From the IMG/VR virus record IMGVR_UViG_3300012953_000044, positions 1 through 51,842 of that record: a stretch of DNA of 51,842 nucleotides; one strand, written 5' to 3'. The first letter of the stretch is position 1; every line of letters starts with the position of its first letter. This document shows, piece after piece, positions 14,266 through 39,437 of the stretch. Source of the stretch: a virus (taxonomy: Duplodnaviria > Caudoviricetes). The notes under the pieces were generated by a model. That model searched no databases and was not told the origin of the DNA. It worked only from the letters and a program-made list of their open reading frames with translations. The position numbers and the translations under genes were made by a program.

Positions 14266-15429
14266 ATGGACGAAAATCAAACACCGAAAATAACGGTAAG
14301 GGAAGTTACCGGAGAAGAAAAATCTCGAGCACAAGTAGAGGAGGTATTACTAAAAAAGCATGAAGAAAAACATAATGTTGAAGAAAGTAAGACTGACGTG
14401 GAGAGAGTGGATACAAGCACTGAGAGTTCCACCCCCGAGAATAAACAAGAAGAAGTACAACAGAAAGATGAAACACAAGAAGCCTCATCAAGCTTAACTG
14501 ATGAAAACGTTCTTTCATATATTAAAGAAAGGTATAATAAAGACATATCTTCTGTGGATGATTTGTTTGCTCAAAGAGAGTTAAATGAAGACTTACCTGA
14601 AGATGTAGCTGCATACTTTCAATACAAAAAAGAAACGGGTCGTGGAATTGGTGATTTTGTAAAATTACAACAAGATTACGATTCTATGGATAATGATAGA
14701 TTGTTGTCTCAATATTATTCTCAAACCGAAGAAGGTTTAGATAGTGAGGATATTAAAGACTTAATGGATGAAAAGTTTGGATATGATTCAGATTTAGATG
14801 ATCCTAAAGAAATTAAGAAAATTGAGAGAGCAAAGAAAAAGGAACTTGTTAAAGCTAAGAAGTTTTTTACTGAACAAAAAGATAAATATAAAACTCCTCT
14901 TGAGTCAAGTGGGAGCGGATTATCTGACGAGGACAGAGAAAAATTTAATAGCTATAAAAGTTATATAGAAGAGTCGACCTCTGCTCAAGAGGCCCAGAAG
15001 AAAAGGTATGATTATTTTTTAGATAAGACCAATGAGGTCTTTAACGATGAATTCAAAGGTTTTGAGTTTAATGTCGGAGAAAAAAGTTTTACATTTAAAC
15101 CTGGAGATAACAAAGAGTTGAAGAGCAAACAATCTGACGTTAATAATTTCGTGAATAAATACATGGATGAAAAAACAGGATTGATTGCAGACCCAGCTGG
15201 TTATCATCGCGCTATGTCGGTGGCTATGAATTTAGATAAGTTTGCTGAATTCTTTTACAATCAAGGTGTTACCTCGGCTGTAGATGATGTAAGTAAGAAG
15301 TCTAAAAACATAAACATGGAAATGCGTAGAACTCCAACTAATCTAAGTAAAGATGGCTTAAAGATTAGAACGGTTGGAGACACAAGTAGTGGAAGAGGGC
15401 TCAAAATTAGAAGTATTAAAAAAAGTTAA
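14266..15429 (+). CDS. Capsid scaffolding/assembly protein
   Basis: Highly acidic helical protein between portal and major capsid gene; basic C-terminal GLKIR repeats. Confidence 0.7.
   Translation: MDENQTPKITVREVTGEEKSRAQVEEVLLKKHEEKHNVEESKTDVERVDTSTESSTPENKQEEVQQKDETQEASSSLTDENVLSYIKERYNKDISSVDDLFAQRELNEDLPEDVAAYFQYKKETGRGIGDFVKLQQDYDSMDNDRLLSQYYSQTEEGLDSEDIKDLMDEKFGYDSDLDDPKEIKKIERAKKKELVKAKKFFTEQKDKYKTPLESSGSGLSDEDREKFNSYKSYIEESTSAQEAQKKRYDYFLDKTNEVFNDEFKGFEFNVGEKSFTFKPGDNKELKSKQSDVNNFVNKYMDEKTGLIADPAGYHRAMSVAMNLDKFAEFFYNQGVTSAVDDVSKKSKNINMEMRRTPTNLSKDGLKIRTVGDTSSGRGLKIRSIKKS
14360..14497 (+). CDS. Nested +1-frame basic peptide (45 aa) with ArfA-like KKKYNRKMKHK motif
   Basis: Own translation MKKNIMLKKVRLTWREWIQALRVPPPRINKKKYNRKMKHKKPHQA*; alternative ATG at 14375; host frame uses atypical GC-ending codons here. 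Confidence 0.55.
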   Translation: MKKNIMLKKVRLTWREWIQALRVPPPRINKKKYNRKMKHKKPHQA

Positions 15430-15451
15430 AAATTAAAAAAATTTAGAAATT

Positions 15452-16873
15452 ATGGCAGTAAATGCAACACCAGGGTTTGACCTTCAGCCAAGTGCGGAAA
15501 GGGTAGCCCTACCAAGTAACTACATTACCAATTTCGATTTCTTGAATCAGTATCTTCCAGATACTTATGAGAAAGAATTTGAAAGATATGGTAATAGAAC
15601 AGTAGCTTCATTCTTAAGAATGGTAGGCGCTGAAATGCCTTCTAACTCAGACATGATAAAATGGGCTGAACAAGGAAGGTTACATACTAAGTATACTAAT
15701 GTAACATTAGCAGCAACAGGTGCTACTACAGGTACATTAACAGTAGCTGACACATTAAGTCCAGCAGGAAGTAATATAGCGGTAAGAATAGGTCAAACTA
15801 TTTTTATCTCTGATAACACTCCAGGGTCTACATTGAGTAATAAAGCAGTTGTAACTGGTGTGACTCAGAACACGATTGCTGTAGCATTCTATGAGGCTTT
15901 ATCTGTTGTTCCAGCAACTCCATCAACATTAACTGTAATGATTTACGGTTCGGAATTCGCTAAAGGAACTAACGGAATGGCTGATTCATTAGAAGCTAAC
16001 GATGTGTTCTTTGACAACAAACCAATTATCATTAAGGATACTTACGAGGTAAGTGGTTCTGACATGGCTCAAATTGGATGGGTTGAAATATCTACTGAAA
16101 ACGGTGGATCAGGATACTTATGGTACATGAAGTCTGAGCACGAAACAAGATTACGTTTCGAAGACTACTTAGAAACAGCAATGATTGAGGCAGTTCCGGC
16201 TGCTCCTAACTCAGGTGCAGAGGCAGCTTTATCTACTTCAGCAGGTGCGATAGGTACAATCAACGCAGGTTCTGAAGGAGTATTCTACGTAGTAGGTGAG
16301 AGAGGAAATGTTTGGGGTGGTGGTAATCCAACTACTCTTGCAGGATTCGATTCAGTTATTTCAAGATTAGACAAGCAAGGTGCTATTGAAGAAAATGTTC
16401 TTTTTGTTAATAGACAATTCTCTTTCGATATGGATGATATGTTAGCTGCTCAAAACTCTTATGGAGCGGGTGGTACTTCATATGGTTTATTTGATAATGA
16501 TGAAGATATGGCTCTTAACTTAGGGTTCACTGGATTCCGTAGAGGATATGACTTCTACAAGTCTGACTGGAAATACCTTAACGATGCTTCAATGAGAGGT
16601 GATATTGTAGGTGGTGCAATCAATGGACTTTTAGTTCCAGCTGGTTCTACATCTGTATATGACCAAATCTTAGGTAAAAATGCAAAGCGTCCATTCTTAC
16701 ACGTTCGATATAGAGCGTCTGAGACTGAAGACAGAAGATATAAAACTTGGATCACTGGTTCTGCTGGTGGAGCAAGAACATCTTCTTTAGATGCAATGCA
16801 GGTTAACTTCTTGAGTGAAAGAGCTTGTTGTACTTTAGGTGCAAACAACTTCTTCTTATTCCAAGATGCATAA
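15452..16873 (+). CDS. Major capsid protein
   Basis: 473 aa after scaffold; strong codon bias (TTC, TAC, AAC); followed by strong terminator; EFERYG...KWAEQGRLH and C-terminal LSERACCTLGANNF. Confidence 0.85.
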   Translation: MAVNATPGFDLQPSAERVALPSNYITNFDFLNQYLPDTYEKEFERYGNRTVASFLRMVGAEMPSNSDMIKWAEQGRLHTKYTNVTLAATGATTGTLTVADTLSPAGSNIAVRIGQTIFISDNTPGSTLSNKAVVTGVTQNTIAVAFYEALSVVPATPSTLTVMIYGSEFAKGTNGMADSLEANDVFFDNKPIIIKDTYEVSGSDMAQIGWVEISTENGGSGYLWYMKSEHETRLRFEDYLETAMIEAVPAAPNSGAEAALSTSAGAIGTINAGSEGVFYVVGERGNVWGGGNPTTLAGFDSVISRLDKQGAIEENVLFVNRQFSFDMDDMLAAQNSYGAGGTSYGLFDNDEDMALNLGFTGFRRGYDFYKSDWKYLNDASMRGDIVGGAINGLLVPAGSTSVYDQILGKNAKRPFLHVRYRASETEDRRYKTWITGSAGGARTSSLDAMQVNFLSERACCTLGANNFFLFQDA

Positions 16874-16887
16874 TCAGTAATATTCAA

Positions 16888-16918
16888 GGGGGAGGATTAA
16901 CCTCCTCCCCTTTTTTTT
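16888..16918 (+). terminator. Rho-independent terminator
   Basis: GGGGGAGG-ATTAA-CCTCCTCC stem-loop followed by CC and T8. Confidence 0.85.
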
Positions 16919-16941
16919 AACTTTAATTAAATTATAATAAA

Positions 16942-17778
16942 ATGAAAAAAACACAAAAATTCGTAGATAAATCCTACAAACTTACGAGAGGACGTGCGCC
17001 TTTAGCATACATGCTTTCTTCTCACCATACCAAAAGAACTAATCTTCTTTATTTTGATGAAGAGACTGGAACAAATAGACCTCTTCGATATTCAAGAAAC
17101 CAAAAATCTCCATTTGAAGATGAACAAGATGGAAATATTATAATGGAGCCAATTATTTTTGAAGATGGTTTATTATATGTTTCTAAACAAAATCAAGTTC
17201 TTCAGCATTTCTTAAATTTACATCCAGGTAACGGAAATATATTTATAGAAATTGATAATGCTAAAGATGCTCATCAAGAATTAGAAGTAGAGAACCTTGT
17301 TTTAGAGGCTCAACTTGTGGCTCGTGATTTATCAGTAGAAAAGTTAGTGACTATAAGTAGAGTTTTATTAGGATCAGATGTAGATAAAATGAGTACTGCG
17401 GAATTAAAACGAGATATATTAGTATTTGCTCGACAAAATCCTGTAGACTTTTTAGATATTTTAGATGATCCAGCTTTACAAGTTCAAGATGATGTAGTTC
17501 AGTTTTTCCAAAATGGATTATTAGTATTAAAAAACAAACAAAGAGATGTTTACTTTAGTCTCCCTAATAATAAAAAGAAGTTTTTAACTGTTCCATTCGG
17601 AGAAGAACCGTATGATATAGTAGCTTCATATATGCAAACTGATGACGGGGTAGAAACTTATAAACTCTTAAAAAGAAACTTGAAAGGAGAAGCTCCTCAG
17701 TTTGAAGTTGTTAATGAAATGCAGGAGGTTAAGATCGAAAATAAACCTAAAAAGAAAAAGAAGGCCTCTAAATCTTAA
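16942..17778 (+). CDS. Hypothetical protein downstream of major capsid gene
   Basis: 278-aa ORF with A-rich leader; basic C-terminal tail. Confidence 0.8.
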   Translation: MKKTQKFVDKSYKLTRGRAPLAYMLSSHHTKRTNLLYFDEETGTNRPLRYSRNQKSPFEDEQDGNIIMEPIIFEDGLLYVSKQNQVLQHFLNLHPGNGNIFIEIDNAKDAHQELEVENLVLEAQLVARDLSVEKLVTISRVLLGSDVDKMSTAELKRDILVFARQNPVDFLDILDDPALQVQDDVVQFFQNGLLVLKNKQRDVYFSLPNNKKKFLTVPFGEEPYDIVASYMQTDDGVETYKLLKRNLKGEAPQFEVVNEMQEVKIENKPKKKKKASKS

Positions 17779-17795
17779 GGAGGAGATACTTAAAG

Positions 17796-17822
17796 AAACA
17801 CCTTATTAAGGTGTTTTTTTTT
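17796..17822 (+). terminator. Rho-independent terminator
   Basis: AAACACCTT-ATT-AAGGTGTTT stem running into a T tract. Confidence 0.75.
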
Positions 17823-17825
17823 ATG

Positions 17826-17833
17826 TATCTTTG
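17826..17833 (+). promoter_or_regulatory. Bacteroidota-type -7 promoter box TATCTTTG
   Basis: TAnnTTTG directly after terminator, 34 nt before ATG 17867. Confidence 0.65.
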
Positions 17834-17866
17834 TACTTTATTAACCCATTAAAAACTTTTTATAAA

Positions 17867-18145
17867 ATGGAAAAATTCTTATCAATTCCAGTTACAGGAG
17901 CTGGAAACAATCTTTTAAGCGTCAGTGGAGTCCTGTCCGTCACAGCGGCCAGTGCAACTGCAACTGACACAGTAATAACTTATATAAATGGAAACACAGC
18001 AACCATTACTTCAGATGCTCAAGTAGCTTATGATGTAAAAACAGCAATTCAAGATGCTATGACAGCGGCGTTAGCAACTTCTTGGACTCGTGTTACTTAT
18101 GCGGTAGTGCCTCCAAAGGCGGTATCGGCAATAGCTATAGCGTAA
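17867..18145 (+). CDS. Small putative virion protein (92 aa)
   Basis: ATG 17867 (MEKFLSIPV) preferred over track TTG 17831, which lies in the promoter box; A/T/S-rich. Confidence 0.7.
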   Translation: MEKFLSIPVTGAGNNLLSVSGVLSVTAASATATDTVITYINGNTATITSDAQVAYDVKTAIQDAMTAALATSWTRVTYAVVPPKAVSAIAIA

Positions 18146-18930
18146 TGGGAAAGTTTATTAAAATACCATTACCGATAATGAACGCTACAGCGGACAATCC
18201 AGCAGCAGCAGTTAGTTCTACAACAACTGGTGCAGTAACCGGAAAATTAACAGACTCTGGTCAAACATTTACTTCTTCAGTAAGTGTAGGAGATATTGTT
18301 TTCCCAGGAGGATCCGCATCTACAGTCTATGCAACAGTGAGTGCTATAGATAGTGATACAGCGTTAACGCTTGGAGGAGATGCAGCCGCTATTGCATTGT
18401 TAGATAATAACACTCAAGCGTATAAAATTTTTACTGTTGCTAATGCTAAATCTTTAGTTTCTTCAGCAGGAGGATTTTCAACTAATGTAAAACCAGGTGA
18501 TATTGTTCTTAATTCAACAACTGGTATTGAGGGGAAAGTTACACAAGTAACTTCAGATACTCAATTGTTACTGGACACTATATTATTTAATGACAACGGT
18601 TCGGATAATGCTGTTGTTTTAAGTGCAGATGGTAATTTTGGACAATTAGTTAATATAAGCAATATAGGACAAACACTTGCTTTCCCAGGTGGTGCGTTTA
18701 CGATTGGATGTTCTATTGCGTATAAGTCTAAAAGCACTCCAATTGATGATATGGCAATAACTATATCAGAAGCTCAAGCAGATTATAACTGGTACAATGC
18801 GTTTACGGAATTAATCGTAGAAGTATTAGAGTCAGACTGGAAAAATGTGGTTAAAACTATGCCATATATTAAGTCTCCTGCTGGTTCTACTTCACCATTT
18901 CTTTATGCTACAAGTATAACTTTTGCATAA
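18145..18930 (+). CDS. Putative virion protein, paralogue of upstream gene with inserted beta domains
   Basis: ATG 18145 via TAATG coupling (MGKFIKIPL); two copies of LxxSxxxF..xVxxGDIV. Confidence 0.7.
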   Translation: MGKFIKIPLPIMNATADNPAAAVSSTTTGAVTGKLTDSGQTFTSSVSVGDIVFPGGSASTVYATVSAIDSDTALTLGGDAAAIALLDNNTQAYKIFTVANAKSLVSSAGGFSTNVKPGDIVLNSTTGIEGKVTQVTSDTQLLLDTILFNDNGSDNAVVLSADGNFGQLVNISNIGQTLAFPGGAFTIGCSIAYKSKSTPIDDMAITISEAQADYNWYNAFTELIVEVLESDWKNVVKTMPYIKSPAGSTSPFLYATSITFA

Positions 18931-18949
18931 TAAATAGTTAAATATTAAG

Positions 18950-18984
18950 AGAGGTCTACAAAAAAAGTGGACCTCTTTTTTTTT
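18950..18984 (+). terminator. Rho-independent terminator
   Basis: AGAGGTCTAC-A7-GTGGACCTCT stem (one G-U) followed by T tract. Confidence 0.8.
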
Positions 18985-18986
18985 CT

Positions 18987-18994
18987 TATCTTTG
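18987..18994 (+). promoter_or_regulatory. Bacteroidota-type -7 promoter box TATCTTTG
   Basis: TAnnTTTG directly after terminator, 19 nt before ATG 19013. Confidence 0.65.
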
Positions 18995-19012
18995 TGGAAA
19001 TGTTTATATACT

Positions 19013-19966
19013 ATGCCAGCATCAATTAATGAAGTTAGAAATACGGTTTTAGCAATAGCAAATAAAAATAACTACGGATATATTTCTCCGCAAGATTTTA
19101 ACCTATATGCTAAGCAAGCGCAGATGGATATGTTTGAAGATTATTTCTATCAATACAACCATTGGGTTAACAAAGAAAATAATAGAGTTTCAGGAACAGG
19201 GTATGCAGATATAGTTAAAGGGTTGGAAGAAGTTATAGATACTTTTTCTACAGAAGTTTTTTTAGCTCAAAATAATTCTAACACTTTTAATTTACCTAAT
19301 GATTATTATTTAATAAATAAGTTATATTATTATTCTACTCCTTTATTTACAGGAACTTCTACGGGTGTTAATATTAATCAATTGTTAGATTCGGTGGCTA
19401 CAGGATGGACTACTATTCCCGCCTCAGCACCAACACCACCGATTGGTAGTTTAGTAGTAAATACAACAACATTGCAAGAGGCTTATATAACAGGGGTGGT
19501 TAATACTACTACAGTTAATTTAAGTGCAAATATATTTACGGGTGTAGGAGAAAATTATGTTATTTATTCTAACACTAAAATTAGAGAGGTAGAAAGAGTT
19601 AATCAAAGTAAAATATTTTACTTAACAAACTCTATGTTAACCGCACCAAGTAAGATTTATCCAGCGTATGTTTTAAATGGTAATGTTATTACGGTTTATC
19701 CTTCTAATATTTTAAATGCGGGAGATATTAGGTCTCAATATATTAGATATCCATTAGATCCTAACTGGACTTGGCAAACATTAGTTGGAGGAGAACCTAT
19801 GTTTAATCAAACTAATGTAAATTTTCAAGAGTTTGAGTTGCCAGATTCCGACGAACCTACATTGGTAGCTAAAATTTGCCAATATATAGGTATTGAGATT
19901 AGAGAAGAAATGGTATACCAGTTTGGTGGAAATGAAGAGAATTTAGACACTCAAGAAACAAGTTAA
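19013..19966 (+). CDS. Putative head-tail adaptor / tail ring protein
   Basis: ATG 19013 (MPASINEVRNTVLAIANKNNYGYISPQDFN); YIRYP..PNW and FELP motifs resembling podoviral/crAss-like ring proteins; position. Confidence 0.6.
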   Translation: MPASINEVRNTVLAIANKNNYGYISPQDFNLYAKQAQMDMFEDYFYQYNHWVNKENNRVSGTGYADIVKGLEEVIDTFSTEVFLAQNNSNTFNLPNDYYLINKLYYYSTPLFTGTSTGVNINQLLDSVATGWTTIPASAPTPPIGSLVVNTTTLQEAYITGVVNTTTVNLSANIFTGVGENYVIYSNTKIREVERVNQSKIFYLTNSMLTAPSKIYPAYVLNGNVITVYPSNILNAGDIRSQYIRYPLDPNWTWQTLVGGEPMFNQTNVNFQEFELPDSDEPTLVAKICQYIGIEIREEMVYQFGGNEENLDTQETS

Positions 19967-19968
19967 TT

Positions 19969-20901: not shown

Positions 20902-20902
20902 T

Positions 20903-25756: not shown

Positions 25757-25769
25757 AAAATTAAATTAT

Positions 25770-26735: not shown

Positions 26736-26746
26736 TATAAATACTT

Positions 26747-27526: not shown

Positions 27527-27534
27527 ATTTTTAC

Positions 27535-27542: not shown

Positions 27543-27547
27543 CATAA

Positions 27548-27958
27548 ATGAAATTAAATATAATACCACTGAGAGATAAAGACTATGAAGATATTCTCTG
27601 TGGATGGTGGAAAGATTGGAGATGGACACCTCCATCAAAAGACTTTTTACCTGAAGACGGGAAGGGAGGTTTTATAGTATATGATGGAGAGCATCCTATA
27701 TGTGCAGGGTTTATGTATGTAACTAACTCTAAAGCAGCATGGTGCGATTGGATTATATCTAATAGGCATTATAGAGATAAACAAAACAGAAGAGATGCTT
27801 TAGAATTATTAGTTAAAACTATTAGTGATGAGGCAGAAAAAAAGGGAATAAAATATATTTACGCATTAATAAAAAACAAACCATTGATTGACGTGTATAA
27901 GAAAAACAATTTTGTAGAAGGAAGCACATACACTCATGAGATGATAAAAACAATATAA
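27548..27958 (+). CDS. GNAT-like acetyltransferase-fold protein
   Basis: 136 aa; ICAGFMY strand, WIISNRHYR, AEKKGIKYIY...YKKNNF pattern like GNAT motifs A/B; position before ejection genes. Confidence 0.55.
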   Translation: MKLNIIPLRDKDYEDILCGWWKDWRWTPPSKDFLPEDGKGGFIVYDGEHPICAGFMYVTNSKAAWCDWIISNRHYRDKQNRRDALELLVKTISDEAEKKGIKYIYALIKNKPLIDVYKKNNFVEGSTYTHEMIKTI

Positions 27959-27959
27959 T

Positions 27960-28925
27960 ATGGCAGTAGCAACAGCAGCAGTAATAGGTATAGCCGCAAC
28001 AGGAGCCTCTACTTACATGAGTTTTTCCGCGGCAGCAAAAGAAAAAGAGGCTAAAGAAAAAGCAGACGCCGAAGCAAAGAAAGCATTAGCAGACGCAAGA
28101 GGAAGAGCGGAGAAAGATTTTTATGGAGGATTAGCTGTACCATTAGATGCTTATGAAGCGGAGTTTGAAAACAATTTAGCTGTCGCGCAGCAAAGCACAG
28201 AGGCTTTACAAGAGGGTGATGCCAGATCTTTAGCCGCAGGTGTAGGTAGAATAGGAGCGCAAGCTTCTGATACTTCGGAAAAGGCTCGTATAGGTATGGG
28301 TCAAGAAATATCAGACTTAAACGCAATGAAAGCTCAGTCTAAAGACGCTGTTAATCAACAGCTTATGCAGATGGATGTAGCGGCAGCACGAGATGCGGCG
28401 CAACGATCAAGAGAATCTGAAGCGGCTCGATCTGCACATATATCACAAGGGGTACAAGGTATAGGAGCTACTGTTAGTGCAATAGGATCGGCTGCTCCGT
28501 TGTTTGGTAAAAAGGCTCCTGCACCAACAACTCCAGGTGGAGGAGGTCCAAGTTTTAGTCAACAAGCATCACAAAGTCAATTGACAACTGGGGCAGGTGG
28601 ATTAATGGGAGGAAATCAAAGTGCTTTTGGATCCGGTGGAGGCCCAAGTTTAGGGGTTAACAATCCTTTTGAAGGGCTTGGAGGCTTTACTCCAAGTGCA
28701 TTATCTCCTAATTATTTCGGATCAGATAGAAGATTAAAAGAAAATATTAAGTTAATTGGACAGTCTCCAAGCGGTTTAAATATATATAGTTTTAAATATA
28801 AAAATGAAGAAGGTATTTATCAGGGTGTTATGTCAGATGAAATAGATCCAAATGCGGTAATTAGAGCAGGTGAATACGATATGGTAAACTATTCTATGAT
28901 TGACGTAGAATTTAAAAAATTATAA
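27960..28925 (+). CDS. Putative ejection/pilot protein with C-terminal peptidase S74 (intramolecular chaperone) domain
   Basis: Ala/Gly-rich amphipathic N-terminus; SDRRLKENI...IYSFKY...QGVMSDEI...VNYS from 28722. Confidence 0.7.
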   Translation: MAVATAAVIGIAATGASTYMSFSAAAKEKEAKEKADAEAKKALADARGRAEKDFYGGLAVPLDAYEAEFENNLAVAQQSTEALQEGDARSLAAGVGRIGAQASDTSEKARIGMGQEISDLNAMKAQSKDAVNQQLMQMDVAAARDAAQRSRESEAARSAHISQGVQGIGATVSAIGSAAPLFGKKAPAPTTPGGGGPSFSQQASQSQLTTGAGGLMGGNQSAFGSGGGPSLGVNNPFEGLGGFTPSALSPNYFGSDRRLKENIKLIGQSPSGLNIYSFKYKNEEGIYQGVMSDEIDPNAVIRAGEYDMVNYSMIDVEFKKL

Positions 28926-28926
28926 T

Positions 28927-30963
28927 ATGGCAATGGTAGATCCAACGAAGGCGAAAAGAAATATAGATTTCGAAACGTATGTCGAGCCTAAAGGAGAAAG
29001 AATAAATTGGTTTGAACAGGCTAAAACTATTAGCGATGCCTTTACTGATGTGGCAACAAGTCGTCAAAAAAGGAAAGACGCGATAGATGATAATACTAAA
29101 CAAACCATAGATGATTTAAATGCATTAGAGGCTTATGATAATCAAACGTTGATGAACATGACGATTGATGGAACTAACAATGCAGCCAACGTAATTTATG
29201 AAGCAGAGCAAGCTATGAAGCGAGGAGAACTTAGACCATCAGAGTTTGCAAAATTAAAACAAAACATTAGCGCGGGATTTACTCAGTTTGAAAAGAATGC
29301 GAAAGCATGGGAGGCAGACTTTAAAAGATATACACAAAGAATGCAAGGCGTTGATGGTGTTCAATCAAGTTCTTTAGAACAATACTTAGGGGAGAGAATG
29401 GAGTCTTTTGGTAATTTAAAGAACTTACAATTAGTTACTAATCCTGATACAGGTAATTTAGCCTTTGGAAGAATCGACCCTGAAACAGGTGAGCTTTTAA
29501 CTGGACCAGATGACTTGATTAGCATCAATAGAATGAGTGCTATATTAAAACAAGAGATTGATAAGGTTGATGTAAATACAAAAGTAAAAGATGTTGTTAC
29601 CTCGTTAGGGGAATATATTGCAGCAGGAAATGCTACTTCAATGGGTAAAGATGGTAGCGTAAGATCTATAGTTACTATAGAAGATTTCATGCAAACTGAA
29701 GACGCTGAAAAAACTATACTTGACAAAGCTAAAACAATTGCTTATAATTCATTTACAACAGGAAGTGTTTTGACAGATAATGGTATTAGCAATGTTCATG
29801 GAGAAAATTATAAGCCAGGTAGTCAAGAGGAGTTTGATCAATGGATAGCAGAGAATCCAGATAAAGACCCTATGGATAATCCAATTATTGTAATGGGTTA
29901 CAAGAAAAATGGAGTGATAGTAGAACCAGCTATTACTGAGCGTCAACAAACAGCCGCTGAAGAATACTTAGTTAGACAAATAAAAGGAGCTTTAGATTAT
30001 AAAGAAACACAGAAAGAATTCCCTCCACAAAGAAAAACTGAGACTGACTATAGAAGAGCGGATAAAAGAAATGAAGCGTTTAGTTATGTGGATCAGGCTC
30101 AAAAAATATCTACAGGTACTCAGCAAGAGTTTAATGAAGGGGTTACTACTTTATCCGAGTCATATAATAACTCTCCTAAAGGACAAAAGAATCCATTAGC
30201 TGAAAATCCAGTGGATAGAAATTCTGATCCAAACTTTATATTAATTACTTATGAAAGTGGAGAGGTGAAAAAAATTCCTCGTTATGAATTAGATAGCAAT
30301 GGAGATGCTGTGATTGATGAGAATGGAAAGAAAATACCAAGAGATCAACAACAACAAAATGCTGAGATCTTAGCTTATATGTCCCCAGTGGAAGGATCAA
30401 CTGACCAAATATATAAAGAGTACAATCGTAATAACCCAGATGGCCTAAAAGATTATGGAGGAAGCGAAGAGACAGTAGAGTACTTAGGTGTAGGAGATAA
30501 GGTGATAGAGGATACTGATTTAAGTAAAGAATTAGTAATGGTGGATGGGTCCCCAGTGGGAGTAGGAGATAGATTCTTAGAAATATCTCAACAAGATGTA
30601 GATGACGAAGAACAATTAGCTCAGTACTCAACGGTTGTAAACTCAGTATTAGGATCTCAAATTGGAGAGCTAACAAAAAACTTCCAGGTTGAACCTAACG
30701 ATATATTAACAAGACCAGATAATATAAATGAGATAAAAGTTACTATTGAAGAAACTCCATATACTATTAGATTTAACACTAATAAAGATTCAGCTAAACT
30801 ACAATCTGAATTACAAAGAATCATAAACGCGTACAAAGAAAAGGTTAGAAAGGGACGAAAGAAAAAAACTACTAAGAAGAAAAAGAAATTAGGTAAGATT
30901 GAATGGATGAAGGCTAATCCAGGTAAGACAAGCGCAGATTACTTAGCATATTTTAATAGTTAA
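28927..30963 (+). CDS. Putative internal virion (ejection) protein
   Basis: 678 aa, helical/charged, second of three size-ascending genes after the tail module; basic C-terminus. Confidence 0.55.
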   Translation: MAMVDPTKAKRNIDFETYVEPKGERINWFEQAKTISDAFTDVATSRQKRKDAIDDNTKQTIDDLNALEAYDNQTLMNMTIDGTNNAANVIYEAEQAMKRGELRPSEFAKLKQNISAGFTQFEKNAKAWEADFKRYTQRMQGVDGVQSSSLEQYLGERMESFGNLKNLQLVTNPDTGNLAFGRIDPETGELLTGPDDLISINRMSAILKQEIDKVDVNTKVKDVVTSLGEYIAAGNATSMGKDGSVRSIVTIEDFMQTEDAEKTILDKAKTIAYNSFTTGSVLTDNGISNVHGENYKPGSQEEFDQWIAENPDKDPMDNPIIVMGYKKNGVIVEPAITERQQTAAEEYLVRQIKGALDYKETQKEFPPQRKTETDYRRADKRNEAFSYVDQAQKISTGTQQEFNEGVTTLSESYNNSPKGQKNPLAENPVDRNSDPNFILITYESGEVKKIPRYELDSNGDAVIDENGKKIPRDQQQQNAEILAYMSPVEGSTDQIYKEYNRNNPDGLKDYGGSEETVEYLGVGDKVIEDTDLSKELVMVDGSPVGVGDRFLEISQQDVDDEEQLAQYSTVVNSVLGSQIGELTKNFQVEPNDILTRPDNINEIKVTIEETPYTIRFNTNKDSAKLQSELQRIINAYKEKVRKGRKKKTTKKKKKLGKIEWMKANPGKTSADYLAYFNS

Positions 30964-30965
30964 GA

Positions 30966-33900
30966 ATGGAAAAATTAGAAGAATTATATTCATTAATTCC
31001 TGAAGGGATGTACTCTTCACTCGAGGAGTTCCAATTAGATTTAGAACAAGAAGGATTAGAGTCTATATTTGAACTTATACCTGAGGGTATGTATACCGAT
31101 CTTGAAGAATTTACAAATGACTTTGTTGAGGTAAAAAAAAAAGACGAATCACAACCTACTGGGGAAGAGGAAGTTACGGAATCCGATATCGATATTCAAA
31201 CGGAAATTCCTGGCTTATCGGATGCTTCTCTTCCGGAAGATCCTAATATACCCCAAGACCCTTCTATAGAAGTAGATCAACCATCTCAATTTGCAAGTGA
31301 GTCTCCAGAAGGAGAAGAAGAGATTGTTACAGAACAAGTCCAGTATGACCCTATGGAAAGAGGGGTAGACGCTACCGTTACTTATGATGTAGATGCGACA
31401 CCATTTGAAAGATCCTTATCTTATATAACTGGTGACTTAATTGAAAGAGAAGAAGAAGAAGTGGTTTCTAAAATGAAATACCATTTTACTGATTATGGTT
31501 TTGAGTTTGAAGAAACCGGAATAGGTGACAAAATGATTGTTACAGCTGACAATGGAAAAGTATTAGAAGTAAATTTAGATCCAAACTTTGGATTAAGAAG
31601 TGAAGAAATATCCTTAGAACTTAAAGAATTTTTAGAAAAAAATAAAGTAGTTAATCCTGATATAGATTTATTAATGGAAGATTACGATGAAAGTCGTAAA
31701 AAGTATTTTTCTACCGAAGCTATGCAGGCAGATATAAAAGATATACACACTCAAGCGAGTACTCTCACTAAAAGATACAAACAATTTCTTTCTAATTCTA
31801 ACGATAATCAAGCACAAATAGATGCGTTAATGGAACTTCCGCAGTTAAGTGATGAGCAGGTTGTGTTATATAATGAATTAATAGATAATAAGAAAAATCT
31901 ATTACTAACTAAAAGTAATTTACAAAAAGAATTTAAAGAATTTAAAACATATGAATCTCAAATTAGTGCGGCTGTAGGGGATTATGTAGCTATGAAACAA
32001 GATATAGGTAATGAGTTTGGTACATTAGTAAAAGGAATGTATAATGCTTTTGCAACTCAAGCGGTACCTAAAATGGTAGCGTCAGCCTGGGGCTTGGGGG
32101 TGGATGGTTTTTACGCGATTGCTCAAGCAATTGATGAGGATTATGGAATGGATGAGGAAGAGAAAAAAGAAAGATATATAGAGGTAGCTAAAGATTTAGG
32201 ATATGAAGTGCCGGAGAATATAAATGAAGAAGGTGTTTTTGAATCTTGGTTTGATCAAATGATGAACACAACATTTGCGGGAGAAGCAGAAACTATAGTA
32301 GATATTTTTCCAGGAGAGATTAAAGAACAATTGATTGCTGAAAATTACGACCCCACTAAAGTTAAAAGAACCAATAGAAGCTTTGAAATATGGAAAGAAG
32401 ATGGGGGATTATTAGGCACTGGAGGTTACGAAGATGTTCCGGTTTACGCTAAAGATATAAGTAGAGGAGCGCGATTAAAACGTTTAGTGTTAGATAGAGA
32501 AGTTAAAGAAAACAAACAACCTCAAAAGGCGGCAATTAGATCAGCTTTAGAGTGGGCAGCAGCAGAAGGGGTGTCTGATGAAAAGGTAGAGGAGATGATG
32601 CAAAAGAGCTGGATATATGAAGGTATGTTCGGTTTAGCAGAATCAGGACCCGCTATCCTGTTAGGGTTATTAGGCCCAGGGAAACCAAAAGCTATAAAGA
32701 AAGGAGCGGGCCTATTAAAAAATACAGGTACTCGATTTAAGAATTATCTACAAAGCCCAGGAGCTATGGCTCAAACCATGGGGTTTAGTTTGTTACAAAC
32801 TGATCATTTAATGGAGGAGATGGCAAATGATCCTGATTTTAAAAATGTAACTGAGACCGAAAAGAAAGCTATAATTTTTCCTTTAGCCATCACTACAGCA
32901 GTATTAGAAAGATATGGTCTTAGAAACATAGCAAGAAATAAAACTATCACTACAGGATTAATGAATCAAGTAACTCGAATGTTACCTAAAGGAGCAACCC
33001 CTAAACTCTTTAAAGAAACTTTAGAGAAAGTAGTATCTAACAATGTAGCACGTGGTATTTATAGGGTGGGAGGAGCTGCATTAGCTGAAGCGGAAACAGG
33101 TGGTCTGCAGCAGGTAGCGGAGATAGGACTTAAAAACGTATGGAATAACATGTATGAAAAAGACATGTTTAACACCCCTGAAATGTGGTCTGAAGAGTTT
33201 GGGGATCAAGTAGTTAGAGCAGCTTTAGCTGAATCTGTAGGAGGATTTGTGTTAGGGTTACCGGGAGGATTAAGCGCAGCATTTAGTAAAGGGGAGATTG
33301 ATGGAGTTCCGGATGAGATGGTTCAGCTTTTTAATACTATCCGTACGGATGAGGTAACTACTGAAGCGTTTAGATCTCAGTTAGATATTAAGGTAGCGAA
33401 TAAAGAAATAACTAAAGAAGAAGCTGCGCAGCAATTAATGAATTTTGAAATTTTATCTGGAGCGGCTCAAACTATTGAAAAGGGAGCGGTATTAAACGAA
33501 GATCAAACTAAAAAAGCTTTAGGGTTAGTTTTCTTAAAACAAAAAATAGAAAACGAGATGGAGGGTATGGACCCTGATCTGGGAACTTATAAAGCAAAAC
33601 AAGAGACGGTGGCTAAGATAAAAGATAAGTTATCTAAGATAGGTACCGATAAAGAAGAGTCAGCTAATTTAAAAGAAGAAACAACTAAAACACAAGACGA
33701 TGCCATTCAAGAGCCAAGCACAGAGACGGTGGATGTACAAGTACAAGCCGAAGATGGCAGAACTATGGGAGATGGAGACACCGAGACGAATATTACCAGA
33801 GAGGGTCAACAAGAAGAACAAACCCCTGTTGGGCAGGAGACGCAGGAGGAAGTAACGATTGAAGAACGATCCGAACAAATAGGTAAATTAATTGAGCAAG

Positions 33901-36900
33901 AAAAAGAAGATTCTCAAACCGAACCTCAACCTATTCCTCGTGAACAATTAGAGGTGGTAGATGAGGTAATATCTATTAATAAAGCCCAACAAGAGGTAAC
34001 AGAAGAAAACCCTTTTAAACAAGGAGTAATAGAGAGAGTAGGTAAAGCAGCCAAAGCTTTAAAGAAAGTCATTCCTAATCTAAAAATTATTATGCATGAG
34101 AGTGCAACTGATTTTAATAAAGCATCAGGTAGAACAGGAAGAGGAGCGTTAGTAGATGGGGTGGTGCATATTAATTTAGAAAAAGCAACCAACTCTACAG
34201 TAGCTCATGAGGCTTTTCATATTGTCTTGCTTAGTAAGTTAGGTACAGATTCCGAAGCTCAAAGAGTTACTAAAAGAATGATGGAATCTATTGCTAAAGC
34301 ACTACCTAAGAATGATCCATTGTTAAAACAAATCAATGAGTTTACACAAGGGTATGAGGCGAATATTCAAAACGAAGAAAAGTTAGCAGAAATACTCGGT
34401 CAGCTATCTGCTAATTATAAAACATTATCAGCGCCGCAGAAGAGTGTTATTGGTAAATGGATTGATAGAATAATGAAAGGATTAGGAATAAATGTATCTG
34501 AGTTTACTCAGTCTGATCAAGATGTTATTGATTTACTTAACACATTAGCATCCAAAGTAACCGCAGGAGTTGAGGTTGAAGAAGGAGATATAAAAGTTAT
34601 AGAAGAGATTAGAGAAGAAACAGGAACGGAGCCTGTTGGTAATCCTACTAACATTAATAAACCTAAATCCAGAGACCAAAAAGAAATAAACTTTAAAAAG
34701 TCTTATGACATGTCTTTGGTTACTCCGGAAAACAAAATAGATTTGTTAGGATTGGTAGATGAGATTGTAGCTAAGAATCAAAAGGTATGGTTCTGGGTAG
34801 CGGACCAGTTAGGTAAAGGAGAATTTAACGGTATTGAAATGGATGCGGGTCCAAGCTATGCGTTAGATCCTACAAATTTAGCTGCTAATATTATATGGGC
34901 AAGTGGTATGAAGCCTAAAGCTATGGCTAACAATGTAGAAAAAGCCGACTATATATTTATTATTAGTGGTTCACCACAAGCCAGTAAACTATTTAACAAA
35001 AAAGTATTTGATGCTTTTGTAAATAAATTAGGAGACTATGCTGCATTTAAAAAATCAGCATTAGCTACTAATCCGGTAAAAGCCGTAAGAGATATATTAG
35101 AAAAGCATGATAGCTGGCCTTCTATCAGGAGAGATGGTAACGGTAGGAAAGGATTACTTAAAGCAATTGTTGCTCAAGAATCTACTCCTAATACTGAATT
35201 CCATAAGCTTGTTAAATCTAAAGATGGTTTTATAAACTTAGATGAATTAAGAGATGGGTTTTACAGAGATAATAACTTTGAGCAAAATGATGTAATGTTG
35301 GTGTTGAAACCAACTGAAGTTGGTGGAAAGTCAAAGCACTCAACTTATGAGACTGATATATTGGGAGAGGTAGTAGGTGTTCCTAATATTAAGTTGGATG
35401 CTTTTGAGATTATGCCTGAAAGTGTTAAAGCTAAATATGAAGGAAAAGAAATGGGTAGGGTGCTGAAAACCCAGGTGGTAGCTCCTTATGGAACAGGAGT
35501 TAAAAAAATTGCTAAACCTGCTAAGAAAAAACCTGCAATTCGTGAGCAGAAAGAATCTAAGCCTACCGTAGAAAAGTTAGCTAACTTTTATGCTATGGAT
35601 AATAAAGGTTTTATTAAGCCTGGGAATGTTTATGACTTAGATGCATTAAGACAATTTGCTTCTCGAGTAGGTTATAAAGTAAAAAGACATCGTGGTGATA
35701 GTGGTGCTACCACAATGTATTCTTTACGTGATGCTAATGATAGACAATTTGTTCCTGTAAAAGGAACTGCACGAACGCGTTTCCAAAAAATTATGGATAA
35801 GTTTGATAGTCCGATGGAGATTATTAAGTTAGCAAGACAAGCTGGTTTTGAGGATACAGAGATAAGTTACTTCTTGCGTAATGAAAAGAAATTAAAAGTT
35901 AAAGAAATAAAAGATCTTCTTAAAGTAGATGTAGATATGTTTGAATCCATGCCTGCTGTATTTGGAAATATCCCAGGTGGTATGGTGGTAGGACGTAAGT
36001 TATATGAAGCTACAATAAAAAAGTTTGAGTCTTTATTACAGAAAAATTCTAAACTTACAAAGGGTAAGCAACGAAATATATCAGATATTATTCAGGAGTC
36101 TATTGAATATATGATGGAGCAAACTCCATATAAGAATGCTACCGAAGGAGTTAAGTCTAAAACATTACCATCTACATTACAACAGCAGCTTCAAATAGAA
36201 ATGCAAGAAGCATTAGGAGGAAGTGCTGTTAAAGATATTAGCAAAACTATTTCCAATCTTAAAAAGATTGTAAGTGAAAAGAAAAGAGGAGCTCGAGAAA
36301 TAAGAGATGTAAAAAGACAATTACAAAGAGCTATTAGAGAAGTAATGCCTAAAGGAGTTTATACCTCTACAGAGGTGAGAAAACTTTTAAGAACTATTCA
36401 AGAGGCTGAACCTAAATGGTTGAAAGGAAATTTAAAAAATCTTGTTCAACAGATAGAAAAAATGGCAGCAGAAAAAAATGTAGATATTTTAAATAAAGCA
36501 ATTGATAAAATATTAAAGCAAAAGTTTGAAGCTGTAGTCTCAGGTATTAAGAAAGGAGTTAAGGTAGATAGTAAGACAGCTAAAATTATTAAAGCAATAG
36601 AGGATAAACTTTATAAGTCCGCTGAAATAAAAGACAATATTGAAAAAGAACAAACAGAGATCTTAGCTAAGATTAATGAGATAAATTTTAAAACTGTTTT
36701 AACGGAGGAGGACCAAACTAATTTATTGATTTTAAACACTGCTTTGGCTATTAATAATTCTAAGTTGATGGAAGATAATAACCCTCGTAAAGCAGATCAA
36801 TTAGCTGAAGTATATAATAATTTAAAAGCCCTCATCTTACAAGGAAGAAATAACTACAAAGAAGCGGCTGCCGAACGATCTAAAAGATATGCTGATAATA

Positions 36901-39437
36901 CGGCAAAGTTTTATCAAGCTTTAACAGGGAGTAAAAACGAGTTAGACTTTAAAGATCCTGATGTTATAGAAAAAATAAAAGAAAAGTTAAAAGCAGATAA
37001 AGATGAGAAGGGAAGTGAGAAAAAACAAGAGGAAAAGGGAGTCAAAAGAATTATAGCTCACTTTAACAATTTAGGAGAAAAAATAATGAGCACTCTAAGG
37101 AGTGCCACTTTAAATTTAGGAGAGCTTACTTCAACATTAGACAAACTTCCTGGCGATGTAATGGGTGAAGGTTTTATAAAAGACTTTATATATCGTAAAG
37201 TAAACCAGTCTACTCGGGTATATAAAGAAAGTATAATGGCTTTAGACCAGATGATGGCTGAAAAAACGGAAGAGTTTTTAGGTAAAGATTATAAATCTAA
37301 ACTAAAAGATTATAGAAAGTATTTAGATTTCACTCAAATAGAAGGAGGTAAGTTTATGAAAAACCCTAAAGAAGTTAAAGATGCTCAAGATAAATATGAT
37401 CAAGATCCTTCGGACACTAATGCTAAGGCCTTACAGAAAGCAGTTAACCGTAATATTCCTTTCTCCGGTCTTACTGCTATGGATTTAATGTATCTCTATT
37501 TTCAGTATAAACAAACAGATACACATGCAGGATTTCAAACTGCTTTAGGAGCTAACTCTGATGTCATTATGGAAGGATTGAGTAAGTACTTTGAAGATAA
37601 CTATCAAGATTTATTAGAGCTCGGAAACTGGCATGTTAATTCTTTGTTTCCATCTTTATATGAAAAGTATAATAAAGTATATAAAACTATATATAATACT
37701 GATTTACCTCAACGAGAAAATTATGCGGGTAGAACATTCAGGCAATTAGATACTAAAACAAAACTTAAAAAAATACAGGAACTAAATAGTCTTGCTTTAC
37801 TTAATGAGATTGGTACTTCTCAAATGAGCACCAATGTAATTGGTAACTCTACTAAGTTAACAGTCAAAAACAAACAGGCTATTATGCCGATAGATTTTTT
37901 TAGTGCTGTAGATTCTTACTTAAAAGACATGGAACATTTCTCTGCTTACGCAGAAAACATGAATGAAATATCTAAGGTTTATTTTAATGAGATTATTGCA
38001 GATGAAATTATAAATCAGTACGGAAAAGAAATGTACGAAACTATAAGAACTGCTTTAATTAACACAGCAACAAGAGGTTCTATGCAATCTGATGCTATGG
38101 TTGGGAAAGTAAATAGTTTTAATAACTTATTTGTTCTTCAAAAATTAGGGGCTGGATTATCTATATATCTTAAGCAGCTTACTTCATCGGTAGCATATGG
38201 AGATGCTATTGGTTTTAGAAACTGGTTGAAAACTGCTATGACGATGGGGCCAAAAGAATTTATAAAAACGTGGCAAGAAATATCTGAAGACTCAGTGTAT
38301 ATTAAGTATAGATATTGGGAAAATATAAACAAAACTATTGAGGCTTATGGAGAGAAAACTTTAGAAGGATATACTCCTGGAGATAAAGGAGATAAACTCA
38401 TGCGATTATTTATGTCTCCAATTAAAGCGGGTGATAAGCAAGCAATATTTATAGGAGGTATTCCAATGTATGTATTCTTAAAAAAGAAATTTATAAAACA
38501 AGGAATGAGTGAGGAAGCTGCTCAGAAGAAAGCCCTATTAATGTTTGAAGAACAAACTAAAGAAGTTCAGCAGTCATCGGACCGACAAGATAAAGATAAT
38601 ATTCAAAATCAAGGAGGTTATGTTCAGTTCTTTAATATGTTTATGTCTGCTCCTAAAGCATACTTCCGTAAATTATTTGGAGGGTATAGAGAACTACGTA
38701 GAAATATAAAAGACGGATCAGGGAAAGGAACTTCGTGGGATAATGCTCGGACTATTGCTCTTTATCAATTTGGATTACCGATGATATTCCAGTGGGCTAC
38801 ATCTGGTTTTCCGATTACGGACTGGGATGATGAAGACACTGAAGATTTAGGAAGATCTGCAATTCTAAGTGTGTTTAATTCTATTTTTATTGTAGGTCAA
38901 ATTGCGGAAATGGTAGCAGATAGATATCAAAAGAAACCATGGTGGAAAGATACTAATCAATTCCCTGTAATAGATTTAGCTACAGATGTGGCAGATAAAT
39001 TAGGTAGAGCTATTGAGGAAGAAGACTCATCAAAATCTTTACAACTATATAAAGAAGCTCTTTATGCTTTATTGCCGCTCACTGGTGGTGCTGGAGTTCC
39101 AATTAAATATGCTTCTATTCCAATGCCTACCTTAGATAGAATGGCTCAGAACCTCTACAAGATAGGTAGAAGCGGAGGGGATCCTAAAGAAGTATTTTTA
39201 AGGTTGTTTAATTATTCAGATTATATTATTGAAGGAGGTAAAAATAAAACTAAACCTAAAAAACGTAGGAAACTTACTAAAACTGAGATGAGAAAATATT
39301 TCCCAGAGTATATGGAAGCTATGGATGATTTTAATAACTCACCTCAAATGAAAGAGTTTAATCAAAAGAAGAAAGACTATAAGGCTCAAGAGAAAAAAAT
39401 AAGACAGGAGATGTTAGACGACATGTTTAAAAAATAA
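30966..39437 (+). CDS. Giant internal virion / large polyvalent protein with zincin-like metallopeptidase motif (2823 aa)
   Basis: VAHEAFH at 34200-34220 with downstream EEKLAE; Gly/Ala-rich helical region; C-terminal helical region typical of large ejection proteins. Confidence 0.7.
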   Translation: MEKLEELYSLIPEGMYSSLEEFQLDLEQEGLESIFELIPEGMYTDLEEFTNDFVEVKKKDESQPTGEEEVTESDIDIQTEIPGLSDASLPEDPNIPQDPSIEVDQPSQFASESPEGEEEIVTEQVQYDPMERGVDATVTYDVDATPFERSLSYITGDLIEREEEEVVSKMKYHFTDYGFEFEETGIGDKMIVTADNGKVLEVNLDPNFGLRSEEISLELKEFLEKNKVVNPDIDLLMEDYDESRKKYFSTEAMQADIKDIHTQASTLTKRYKQFLSNSNDNQAQIDALMELPQLSDEQVVLYNELIDNKKNLLLTKSNLQKEFKEFKTYESQISAAVGDYVAMKQDIGNEFGTLVKGMYNAFATQAVPKMVASAWGLGVDGFYAIAQAIDEDYGMDEEEKKERYIEVAKDLGYEVPENINEEGVFESWFDQMMNTTFAGEAETIVDIFPGEIKEQLIAENYDPTKVKRTNRSFEIWKEDGGLLGTGGYEDVPVYAKDISRGARLKRLVLDREVKENKQPQKAAIRSALEWAAAEGVSDEKVEEMMQKSWIYEGMFGLAESGPAILLGLLGPGKPKAIKKGAGLLKNTGTRFKNYLQSPGAMAQTMGFSLLQTDHLMEEMANDPDFKNVTETEKKAIIFPLAITTAVLERYGLRNIARNKTITTGLMNQVTRMLPKGATPKLFKETLEKVVSNNVARGIYRVGGAALAEAETGGLQQVAEIGLKNVWNNMYEKDMFNTPEMWSEEFGDQVVRAALAESVGGFVLGLPGGLSAAFSKGEIDGVPDEMVQLFNTIRTDEVTTEAFRSQLDIKVANKEITKEEAAQQLMNFEILSGAAQTIEKGAVLNEDQTKKALGLVFLKQKIENEMEGMDPDLGTYKAKQETVAKIKDKLSKIGTDKEESANLKEETTKTQDDAIQEPSTETVDVQVQAEDGRTMGDGDTETNITREGQQEEQTPVGQETQEEVTIEERSEQIGKLIEQEKEDSQTEPQPIPREQLEVVDEVISINKAQQEVTEENPFKQGVIERVGKAAKALKKVIPNLKIIMHESATDFNKASGRTGRGALVDGVVHINLEKATNSTVAHEAFHIVLLSKLGTDSEAQRVTKRMMESIAKALPKNDPLLKQINEFTQGYEANIQNEEKLAEILGQLSANYKTLSAPQKSVIGKWIDRIMKGLGINVSEFTQSDQDVIDLLNTLASKVTAGVEVEEGDIKVIEEIREETGTEPVGNPTNINKPKSRDQKEINFKKSYDMSLVTPENKIDLLGLVDEIVAKNQKVWFWVADQLGKGEFNGIEMDAGPSYALDPTNLAANIIWASGMKPKAMANNVEKADYIFIISGSPQASKLFNKKVFDAFVNKLGDYAAFKKSALATNPVKAVRDILEKHDSWPSIRRDGNGRKGLLKAIVAQESTPNTEFHKLVKSKDGFINLDELRDGFYRDNNFEQNDVMLVLKPTEVGGKSKHSTYETDILGEVVGVPNIKLDAFEIMPESVKAKYEGKEMGRVLKTQVVAPYGTGVKKIAKPAKKKPAIREQKESKPTVEKLANFYAMDNKGFIKPGNVYDLDALRQFASRVGYKVKRHRGDSGATTMYSLRDANDRQFVPVKGTARTRFQKIMDKFDSPMEIIKLARQAGFEDTEISYFLRNEKKLKVKEIKDLLKVDVDMFESMPAVFGNIPGGMVVGRKLYEATIKKFESLLQKNSKLTKGKQRNISDIIQESIEYMMEQTPYKNATEGVKSKTLPSTLQQQLQIEMQEALGGSAVKDISKTISNLKKIVSEKKRGAREIRDVKRQLQRAIREVMPKGVYTSTEVRKLLRTIQEAEPKWLKGNLKNLVQQIEKMAAEKNVDILNKAIDKILKQKFEAVVSGIKKGVKVDSKTAKIIKAIEDKLYKSAEIKDNIEKEQTEILAKINEINFKTVLTEEDQTNLLILNTALAINNSKLMEDNNPRKADQLAEVYNNLKALILQGRNNYKEAAAERSKRYADNTAKFYQALTGSKNELDFKDPDVIEKIKEKLKADKDEKGSEKKQEEKGVKRIIAHFNNLGEKIMSTLRSATLNLGELTSTLDKLPGDVMGEGFIKDFIYRKVNQSTRVYKESIMALDQMMAEKTEEFLGKDYKSKLKDYRKYLDFTQIEGGKFMKNPKEVKDAQDKYDQDPSDTNAKALQKAVNRNIPFSGLTAMDLMYLYFQYKQTDTHAGFQTALGANSDVIMEGLSKYFEDNYQDLLELGNWHVNSLFPSLYEKYNKVYKTIYNTDLPQRENYAGRTFRQLDTKTKLKKIQELNSLALLNEIGTSQMSTNVIGNSTKLTVKNKQAIMPIDFFSAVDSYLKDMEHFSAYAENMNEISKVYFNEIIADEIINQYGKEMYETIRTALINTATRGSMQSDAMVGKVNSFNNLFVLQKLGAGLSIYLKQLTSSVAYGDAIGFRNWLKTAMTMGPKEFIKTWQEISEDSVYIKYRYWENINKTIEAYGEKTLEGYTPGDKGDKLMRLFMSPIKAGDKQAIFIGGIPMYVFLKKKFIKQGMSEEAAQKKALLMFEEQTKEVQQSSDRQDKDNIQNQGGYVQFFNMFMSAPKAYFRKLFGGYRELRRNIKDGSGKGTSWDNARTIALYQFGLPMIFQWATSGFPITDWDDEDTEDLGRSAILSVFNSIFIVGQIAEMVADRYQKKPWWKDTNQFPVIDLATDVADKLGRAIEEEDSSKSLQLYKEALYALLPLTGGAGVPIKYASIPMPTLDRMAQNLYKIGRSGGDPKEVFLRLFNYSDYIIEGGKNKTKPKKRRKLTKTEMRKYFPEYMEAMDDFNNSPQMKEFNQKKKDYKAQEKKIRQEMLDDMFKK
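31133..31246 (+). other. Candidate programmed -1 frameshift / transcriptional slippage cassette
   Basis: A10 run (31133-31142), stem-loop 31163-31234, -1 frame open 34 codons to TAA 31244-31246. Confidence 0.45.
33700..33855 (+). CDS. Nested +1-frame basic peptide (51 aa), MPFKS-xxQRRWM type small phage protein
   Basis: Own translation MPFKSQAQRRWMYKYKPKMAELWEMETPRRILPERVNKKNKPLLGRRRRRK*; A-rich leader with A at -3; local GC rise in host frame. Confidence 0.65.
   Translation: MPFKSQAQRRWMYKYKPKMAELWEMETPRRILPERVNKKNKPLLGRRRRRK

Follow-up and report, generated by a model that had tools for sequence, protein, structure and literature searches.

Conserved alternative reading frames in acidic linkers of late structural genes of a marine Bacteroidota podophage

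The gene Rz1 of phage lambda lies inside Rz, as an embedded gene in the +1 frame on a late transcript, and protein J of phiX174 and the internal proteins of T4 are small DNA-binding proteins found inside the capsid. A single gene can also give two products with a common N-terminus by slippage on a homopolymer of at least 9 bases, and productive transcriptional slippage of this type is described for Thermus dnaX and Shigella spa13 (PMC5009743) and for Citrobacter tssM (PMC4256274). Slippage of bacterial RNA polymerase is efficient on 9 A/T (PMC5009743), whereas ribosome sliding in E. coli is slight on A9 or A10 and becomes robust on A11 (PMC4363877), thresholds that derive from bacteria other than the hosts considered here. 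Frameshifted virion proteins are known in phages, for example in Listeria phage PSA (PMC5009743); the known cases are ribosomal, lie mostly near the 3′ end of the gene, and yield the longer product. Finally, MuF and polyvalent proteins are packaged in virions (PMC5512222); the parts searched of that paper mention neither frameshift nor Cellulophaga.

We analyzed IMGVR_UViG_3300012953_000044, a linear virus record of 51,842 bases (85% complete), called here the window over its whole length. The window belongs to a marine Bacteroidota podophage. Its nearest cultured relatives are Maribacter phage Panino, Elemovirus, Pervagoviridae, and Pachyviridae, all of them Bacteroidota podophages. The portal is 45%, 34%, and 28% identical to those of Elemovirus, Pervagoviridae, and Pachyviridae, respectively, and the gene order from portal to capsid is kept. 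The features under discussion are collected in Table 1. Host gene 1 is presumably the scaffold gene, judging from position and composition, and host gene 2, the giant gene, would encode an ejection protein because of its position, its size, and its HExxH motif. The positional homologue of the giant protein in phi18:3, gp123, is annotated as structural by MS/MS.

The initial annotation of the window proposed that the acidic linkers of head and ejection genes hold a second coding layer, with dual-coding signals at 14360, 31133, and 33700. All three are present there, in host linkers with 30–34% Asp/Glu, and the layer is conserved across relatives. The three were thought to give short Arg/Lys/aromatic-rich products. 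The nested genes A and B would indeed encode basic peptides; the signal at 31133 turns out to be a predicted frameshift extension of the giant N-terminus and not a separate gene, and the basicity is forced by the acidic host codons.

Table 1. Coordinates and properties of the features (window positions, except in the last row)
Feature	Position	Strand	Remarks
Terminase	9530-11776		
Portal	11773-14208		phrog_6547
Scaffold-position gene (host gene 1)	14266..15429	+	387 aa; acidic N-terminal linker; between portal and major capsid gene; phrog_16786 (unknown function)
Nested gene A	14360..14497	+	+1 frame; own ATG; 45 aa; net charge +15
Capsid-position virion protein	15452-16873		phrog_13704
Giant gene (host gene 2)	30966..39437	+	2823 aa; virion protein; HExxH motif at residue 1081
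Giant N-terminal domain	30966..31133	+	residues 1-56; two-repeat acidic helical; net charge -16; common to giant protein and predicted short product
A10 run	31133..31142	+	predicted slippage site
-1 frame tail	31143..31246	+	34 residues after three lysines; no ATG; stop TAA 31244-31246
Nested gene B	33700..33855	+	+1 frame; own ATG; starts MPFKS; 51 aa; net charge +14
A9-split records	L139:30119-30393, L141:7310-7632, L142, L143, L133:31590-31774		N-terminal domain annotated as separate small gene or missed

Like Rz1 within Rz, A and B are small genes wholly contained in larger ones, in the +1 frame and on a late transcript. Unlike Rz1, they would encode soluble-looking basic peptides and not lipoproteins, their hosts are the scaffold and ejection genes, and B occupies three sites in one phage family. 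Short, very basic, and encoded among late assembly genes, A and B also recall phiX174 J and the T4 internal proteins; this is a working analogy with a putative virion presence, and PDB sequence searches give no sequence relationship between them. With dnaX, spa13, and tssM, the giant gene shares the long homopolymer and, by prediction, two products with a common N-terminus, and the spa13 site follows codon 58 (PMC5009743) where that of the window follows codon 56. The differences are that the gene belongs to a phage virion, that the giant protein would come from the unslipped message, that the short product would carry a conserved new C-terminal domain, and that slippage is predicted here. As in the known virion-gene frameshifts, one gene would lead to two virion-related proteins through a change of frame, but the site lies at 2% of the gene and the predicted product has 93 aa. 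With its HExxH motif and late context, the giant protein resembles the MuF and polyvalent proteins (PMC5512222), and B stands at the N-terminus of MuF and polyvalent-type fusions; the giant protein itself, however, matches no curated family above cut-off (PHROG, Pfam, NCBIfam).

Other features of the late region are as follows. Downstream of the capsid gene and of the genes next to it are T8–T9 runs (16911, 17814, and 18976), with T9–T10 runs at similar places in relatives; the three runs of the window are likely intrinsic terminators inside the late operon. Lys/Arg-rich C-terminal tails, encoded in the genes' own frame, occur in a 678-aa gene (30852-30890) and a 278-aa gene (17745-17778). A Peptidase_S74-like chaperone stretch (28720-28925; E 2e-4, just below cut-off) closes the 321-aa virion gene, whose length varies from ~190 to 326 aa among relatives.

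Two null models, codon shuffling and synonymous recoding of the host (2000 replicates each), were compared with the real frames, using family profiles built without the window. An equally long frame arises after codon shuffling in 0.7% (A), 0.5% (B), and 0.6% (tail) of replicates and after synonymous recoding in 11%, 19%, and 0.1%, respectively; because of the latter values, frame length alone is weak evidence for A and B. The profile scores of the real frames are 74.8 (A), 82.9 (B), and 48.3 (tail) bits, and none of 2000 nulls reaches them in any of the six tests. Richness in Arg and Lys is not independent evidence, because shuffled acidic-linker codons give nearly equal K+R fractions (real vs. 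shuffled, 0.36 vs. 0.31 for A, 0.35 vs. 0.34 for B, and 0.15 vs. 0.17 for the tail). As a control, a set of 132 loci that had been retrieved with other genes was searched with 53 alternative-frame stop-free stretches of at least 30 codons from 14 structural genes. There, the alternative frame wins over the host frame 35:0 for B and 32:0 for the tail, with a tie (4:4) for A; the other 50 stretches have no alternative-frame wins except for two on the DNA of B and the tail (2:22 and 1:8). Only for A, B, and the tail, among the 53 stretches, does conservation equal or exceed that of the host frame. The initial annotation had allowed that codon-shuffled acidic linkers might give equally long, motif-like frames and that conservation across genomes might be lacking; on both counts the outcome did not refute the second layer. 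A +1 ORF at 14798-14968 (56 aa) was rejected as a further nested gene, its host frame winning 71:0. None of the three peptides is named by a PHROG, Pfam, or NCBIfam family, single-sequence protein searches with A and B gave no matches, and PDB sequence searches with the peptides gave chance-level matches only.

Nested genes A and B are each an ORF entirely within the host gene, in another frame and with its own start, and purifying selection acts on that frame; they are overprinted in this sense. Amino acid identity is 0.70 in the A frame vs. 0.48 in the host frame (76 sequences), and 0.62 vs. 0.46 for B (27 sequences). The third codon position of both nested frames is the most variable, and a scaffold core control shows the reverse. 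In A, a second ATG at 14375 would give a product of 40 aa, and the C-terminus carries an invariant K..Y.RK.KH motif. A weak match to DUF7230 (PF23876) is seen in two of eight A members, below threshold.

The best 80 loci from an A alignment search are all nested at +1 in scaffold genes, and in seven of them the same linker also holds B, upstream of A. Of 120 loci from an unranked motif scan, 90 are nested and 30 are not, and four of these 30 are clear stand-alone A genes (60–65 bits), the rest sharing mainly the C-terminal motif. A separate family of stand-alone small genes (L320, L324, L328, and others) has the C-terminal motif of A with a different N-terminal helix. Nine of 33 whole records have strong A matches, six of them in records chosen for A, and no stand-alone A copy occurs in the other 24. 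The initial annotation raised the test whether genomes without the nested copy carry the peptide as a separate gene: A and B are free-standing elsewhere, and these relatives without nested A have no such copy. Among the closest relatives, A was seen in three of 67 scaffolds, one of them diverged (these come from 80 capsid-gene loci, 13 without upstream DNA being left out). On a tree of 113 of the 198 scaffolds, A changes state seven times (shuffled mean 38) and B four times (mean 21). A is patchy in the clade of the window, and in the sister clade all 61 sampled members have A, B, or both, these 61 scaffolds having been found via A and B themselves. The median scaffold length rises from 367 with neither gene to 397 with A and 420 with both.

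The giant-gene set comprises 52 loci, 41 of which were scanned (11 being too short to reach the giant gene) and 38 of which have the gene, making 39 with the window. B is present in 36 of the 39, and the three misses end at 262–536 codons, before the earliest B position. Among the 33 whole records, 25 have B, and all six that were chosen for A are without it. Nested B matches 68 Elemovirus records; among the matches listed, only the giant structural gene is annotated. Of the best 80 IMG/VR loci for B, 43 have it nested at +1, although the overlap is probably due to chance in two of high GC; 29 have it as a stand-alone gene, and in eight it overlaps in other frames. Fifteen nested copies lie in the scaffold-position gene after the portal and not in the giant gene (14 with a scaffold match), and four copies come immediately after the stop codon of a very long ORF, which in one case matches the giant. 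B thus has three sites, one in the giant linker, one in the scaffold linker, and a free one, and moves among them. Streptomyces phage FlowerPower and phage 023Pt_psg01 have it as an annotated stand-alone gene; in C75C1 it is unannotated. The context of stand-alone B was followed at 27 loci (12 of 39 were left out as near-duplicates or giant-adjacent): 14 have head or tail genes at most two ORFs away (10 terminase or portal, four tail), and 13 have no assembly gene nearby.

Longer proteins matching the B profile (n = 37) mostly carry B at the N-terminus, two examples being a head protein of the Phage_Mu_F type and a polyvalent-type protein (P0007, P0021). B also forms the N-terminus of many unrelated proteins of 100–700 aa (P0002, P0003, P0017, P0033, P0037; L212, L219), which suggests a portable tag. 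In the predicted structure, two helices surround a proline and are followed by a disordered basic tail (pLDDT 79). The nearest named Atlas cluster is DUF3008 (PF11450; 0.85, 158 features), which misses the Pfam gathering threshold. DUF3008, DUF7230, and ArfA (PF03889) are, like A and B, small basic proteins, and these matches, all below curated or stated thresholds, serve as leads only. In the complete relative G015 (L463, L472), two B-like matches lie ~250 bases apart. The structural regions examined in phi38:1, phi13:2, and Panino did not contain B, and neither did the giant gene of Gundel. Given this, and the rarity of A in the closest scaffolds, neither A nor B is universally required. The view of the initial annotation that the peptides form one set does not hold as an obligate rule, since many close relatives lack A and a sister lineage has A with B absent and A10 mostly absent.

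On the + strand of the window, no A run other than A10 exceeds 8. Exactly ten A's are found in all 39 giant genes, after an N-terminal domain of 43–70 codons, and the giant frame is intact in every one. Over the 52 loci of the giant-gene set, A10 occurs 40 times and A9 three times; in a wider set of 52 distinct giant 5′ ends, there are 46 A10, three A11, one A9, and two without a run. The 46 A10 start in all three codon phases (32/11/3). After the run, the −1 frame is open for at least 31 codons in 31 of 31 cases vs. a background of 2.9%, and tail identity is 0.37 vs. 0.32 in the host frame, a small margin. Arg, Gly, Ser, Tyr, Phe, and Trp are abundant in the tail, which is nearly without acids. 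An mRNA with one additional A would be read on into the tail frame. The +1 frame after the run, corresponding to an A9 product, was rejected: it is often open but is conserved less than the host frame or the tail (identity 0.29; 1:8). The run and tail occur in cultured elemoF, phi38:1, Calle, and Gundel, the tail being unannotated in the last three, and G032, G036, and G037 have neither. The subfamily of the giant N-terminal domain, a candidate capsid-loading signal, differs widely among close relatives (L081–L131), while run and tail stay.

The tail of the window is predicted to form a three-stranded β-meander. In the model of L129, where the N-terminal domain and the tail form one ORF, a helical N-domain (pLDDT >90) precedes three β strands (58–75); an Atlas structure search with this ORF gave TM values of 0.50 or less. 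Against 1.84 billion proteins, the tail profile found 25 matches, all of 76–112 aa with the tail C-terminal. The ten of these fused proteins that were looked up are single-contig singletons, and the 25 are not counted as evidence of expression. Within this group, P0041 appears chimeric and P0058 is without the lysine junction.

In the GenBank records of four Pachyviridae (phi13:2, phi18:3, phi19:3, and phi46:3) and of Panino, the site reads A9, which splits the giant gene. The Cellulophaga phages were reportedly sequenced by 454, and A9 in all five records is probably a homopolymer sequencing error. A true A9 is less likely, as Gundel has A10 in frame and Panino was sequenced with Nanopore only (PMC11590407). 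An IMG/VR scan on this question returned the same four genomes only. Four DNA assemblies show no run-length variant, contigs being prone to drop rare variants; one of the sequencing runs (X1) may be that from which the window itself comes.

We propose that A, B, and the A10 tail constitute a conserved second coding layer in the acidic linkers of late structural genes, an explanation to which, as a whole, we assign a probability of about 0.55. It builds on the observed frames, which are conserved and, for A and B, under selection, on a run of constant length, and on the finding that B changes its site. Acidic linkers would be a natural site for such a layer, because a shift to +1 turns Glu/Asp codons into Lys/Arg codons and because the linker tolerates change. 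On sequence grounds, A and B are very probably expressed, and use of the tail appears nearly as probable. A and B would be made by internal initiation on the late mRNA, as suggested by their start context and by the absence of an enriched promoter motif. Adenine peaks at positions −11 to −13 of the nested starts, at 0.85–0.88 for B, compared with 0.71–0.86 at annotated starts and 0.36–0.40 at other +1 ATGs. Only two of 34 nested starts have a Shine–Dalgarno motif, and the B start of the window has an A-rich context without one. A search for an internal promoter before B found a Bacteroidota-type motif upstream in one of 30 cases vs. a background of 8.8%.

At A10, RNA polymerase would add one A, yielding a 93-aa protein that joins the giant N-terminal domain to a basic-aromatic β tail. 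We regard polymerase slippage as the probable route into the tail, with moderate confidence; it fits best because polymerase slips on 9 A/T, ribosomes slide little at A9–A10, and the length but not the phase of the run is conserved. Loading of the short product into the head would depend on the N-terminal domain that it has in common with the giant protein, and its amphipathic β tail may act at the membrane or on DNA during ejection. For A and B, our tentative reading is that they are small basic nucleic-acid-binding head-assembly factors, which might neutralize or tether DNA in packaging and be made in step with the scaffold and ejection proteins. The gene context, the fusions to head proteins, and the charge point to head assembly and DNA delivery. 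A and B may bind or condense DNA. More speculatively still, the A10 might be tuned in length, enough for polymerase slippage and just too short for ribosome sliding, to make a small ejection protein. A and B might be a mobile set of basic head-assembly microgenes that change place among the acidic linkers of scaffold and ejection genes, B might be a general capsid-loading or DNA-binding tag in unrelated phages, and the whole might be widespread in Bacteroidota podophages.

The tail could alternatively be reached by the ribosome, through a −1 frameshift on A_AAA_AAA or sliding on the lysine codons. Such a heptamer (X_XXY_YYZ) lies in the host frame within every A10, and precedents exist among phage virion genes such as that of PSA (PMC5009743). 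It is mainly because of G033 (L509), in which a homologous −1 tail stands behind A7 only, a ribosomal-type heptamer, that this route stays a rival, and the recoding route in the G033 lineage may differ. We nevertheless hold a ribosomal route to be unlikely, as total run length and not codon phase is conserved, E. coli ribosomes slide little at A10 (PMC4363877), and no conserved 3′ RNA structure follows the run (mean z 0.15, with two of 30 below −2, in single-sequence folding of 60 bases without pseudoknots). The run might also be a switch for phase variation at the DNA level, some genomes carrying A11 and making the short protein only. L129, with a natural A11, and the 25 fused proteins of the library would fit such a switch, which we nonetheless consider quite improbable: sporadic variants or read errors would look like the singletons examined, all 39 genes keep the giant frame intact, and a genome without the giant virion protein would be unlikely to propagate alone. 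Polymerase slippage remains our preferred route into the tail.

As for A and B, the initial annotation had suggested an action on ribosomes. The peptides would then act on host translation or RNA late in infection (ribosome-binding, ArfA-like) and not in the head. The K..Y.RK.KH motif at the end of A resembles the end of ArfA, and A gives sub-threshold matches to DUF7230 (E 0.009) and YhfG (E 0.015). An ArfA-domain gene of a pelagiphage is highly expressed (PMC12753301), and one B fusion, P0001 on a 591-base contig, is to IF3-C. When ArfA membership was examined, however, the profiles gave no match in the window, in Pfam (PF03889), or among PDB chains, the pelagiphage ArfA-domain protein scores −1.1 bits on the A profile, and the IF3-C fusion is a singleton that may be chimeric; a role in translation seems to us less probable than one in the head. 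It is far less probable still that acidic low-complexity linkers produce the frames as a by-product, or that these are unexpressed relics of captured genes. Charge inversion is automatic, long +1 frames arise in 11–19% of synonymous recodings, and A is patchy on the scaffold tree, all of which a by-product would explain. Selection on the alternative frame, profile scores beyond the reach of the nulls, stand-alone homologues in unrelated phages, and the conserved start context argue against it, and for A and B this reading is largely refuted. Head assembly and DNA delivery remain the reading that we tentatively prefer for A and B.

Each type of mechanism considered here is known; we found no published account of their combination, of a run of exactly ten A's, or of a B that changes its site. 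Searches of the open full-text literature on these phage families and on slippage, frameshifts, nested genes, DUF3008, and ArfA gave no description of the elements; subscription journals and supplements lie outside that scope, and the original Cellulophaga proteomics tables may bear on the matter. If slippage is true, the giant gene would be a case of conserved, selected transcriptional slippage in a phage virion gene, of which the literature searched holds no description. Annotations of cultured model phages miss the predicted products of the A10 tail and of nested B, and the five GenBank records in which the giant gene is apparently split at the run would probably be corrected. Pattern scans give an estimated ~3800 (B-type) and 2200–3000 (A-type) matching stretches in IMG/VR. 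With cultured Elemovirus and phi38:1, and with public phi38:1 infection proteomics (MassIVE MSV000098485, PXD066074; PMC13288928), the layer is directly testable. For overprinting, the rule would be that acidic disordered linkers yield basic +1-frame peptides for free.
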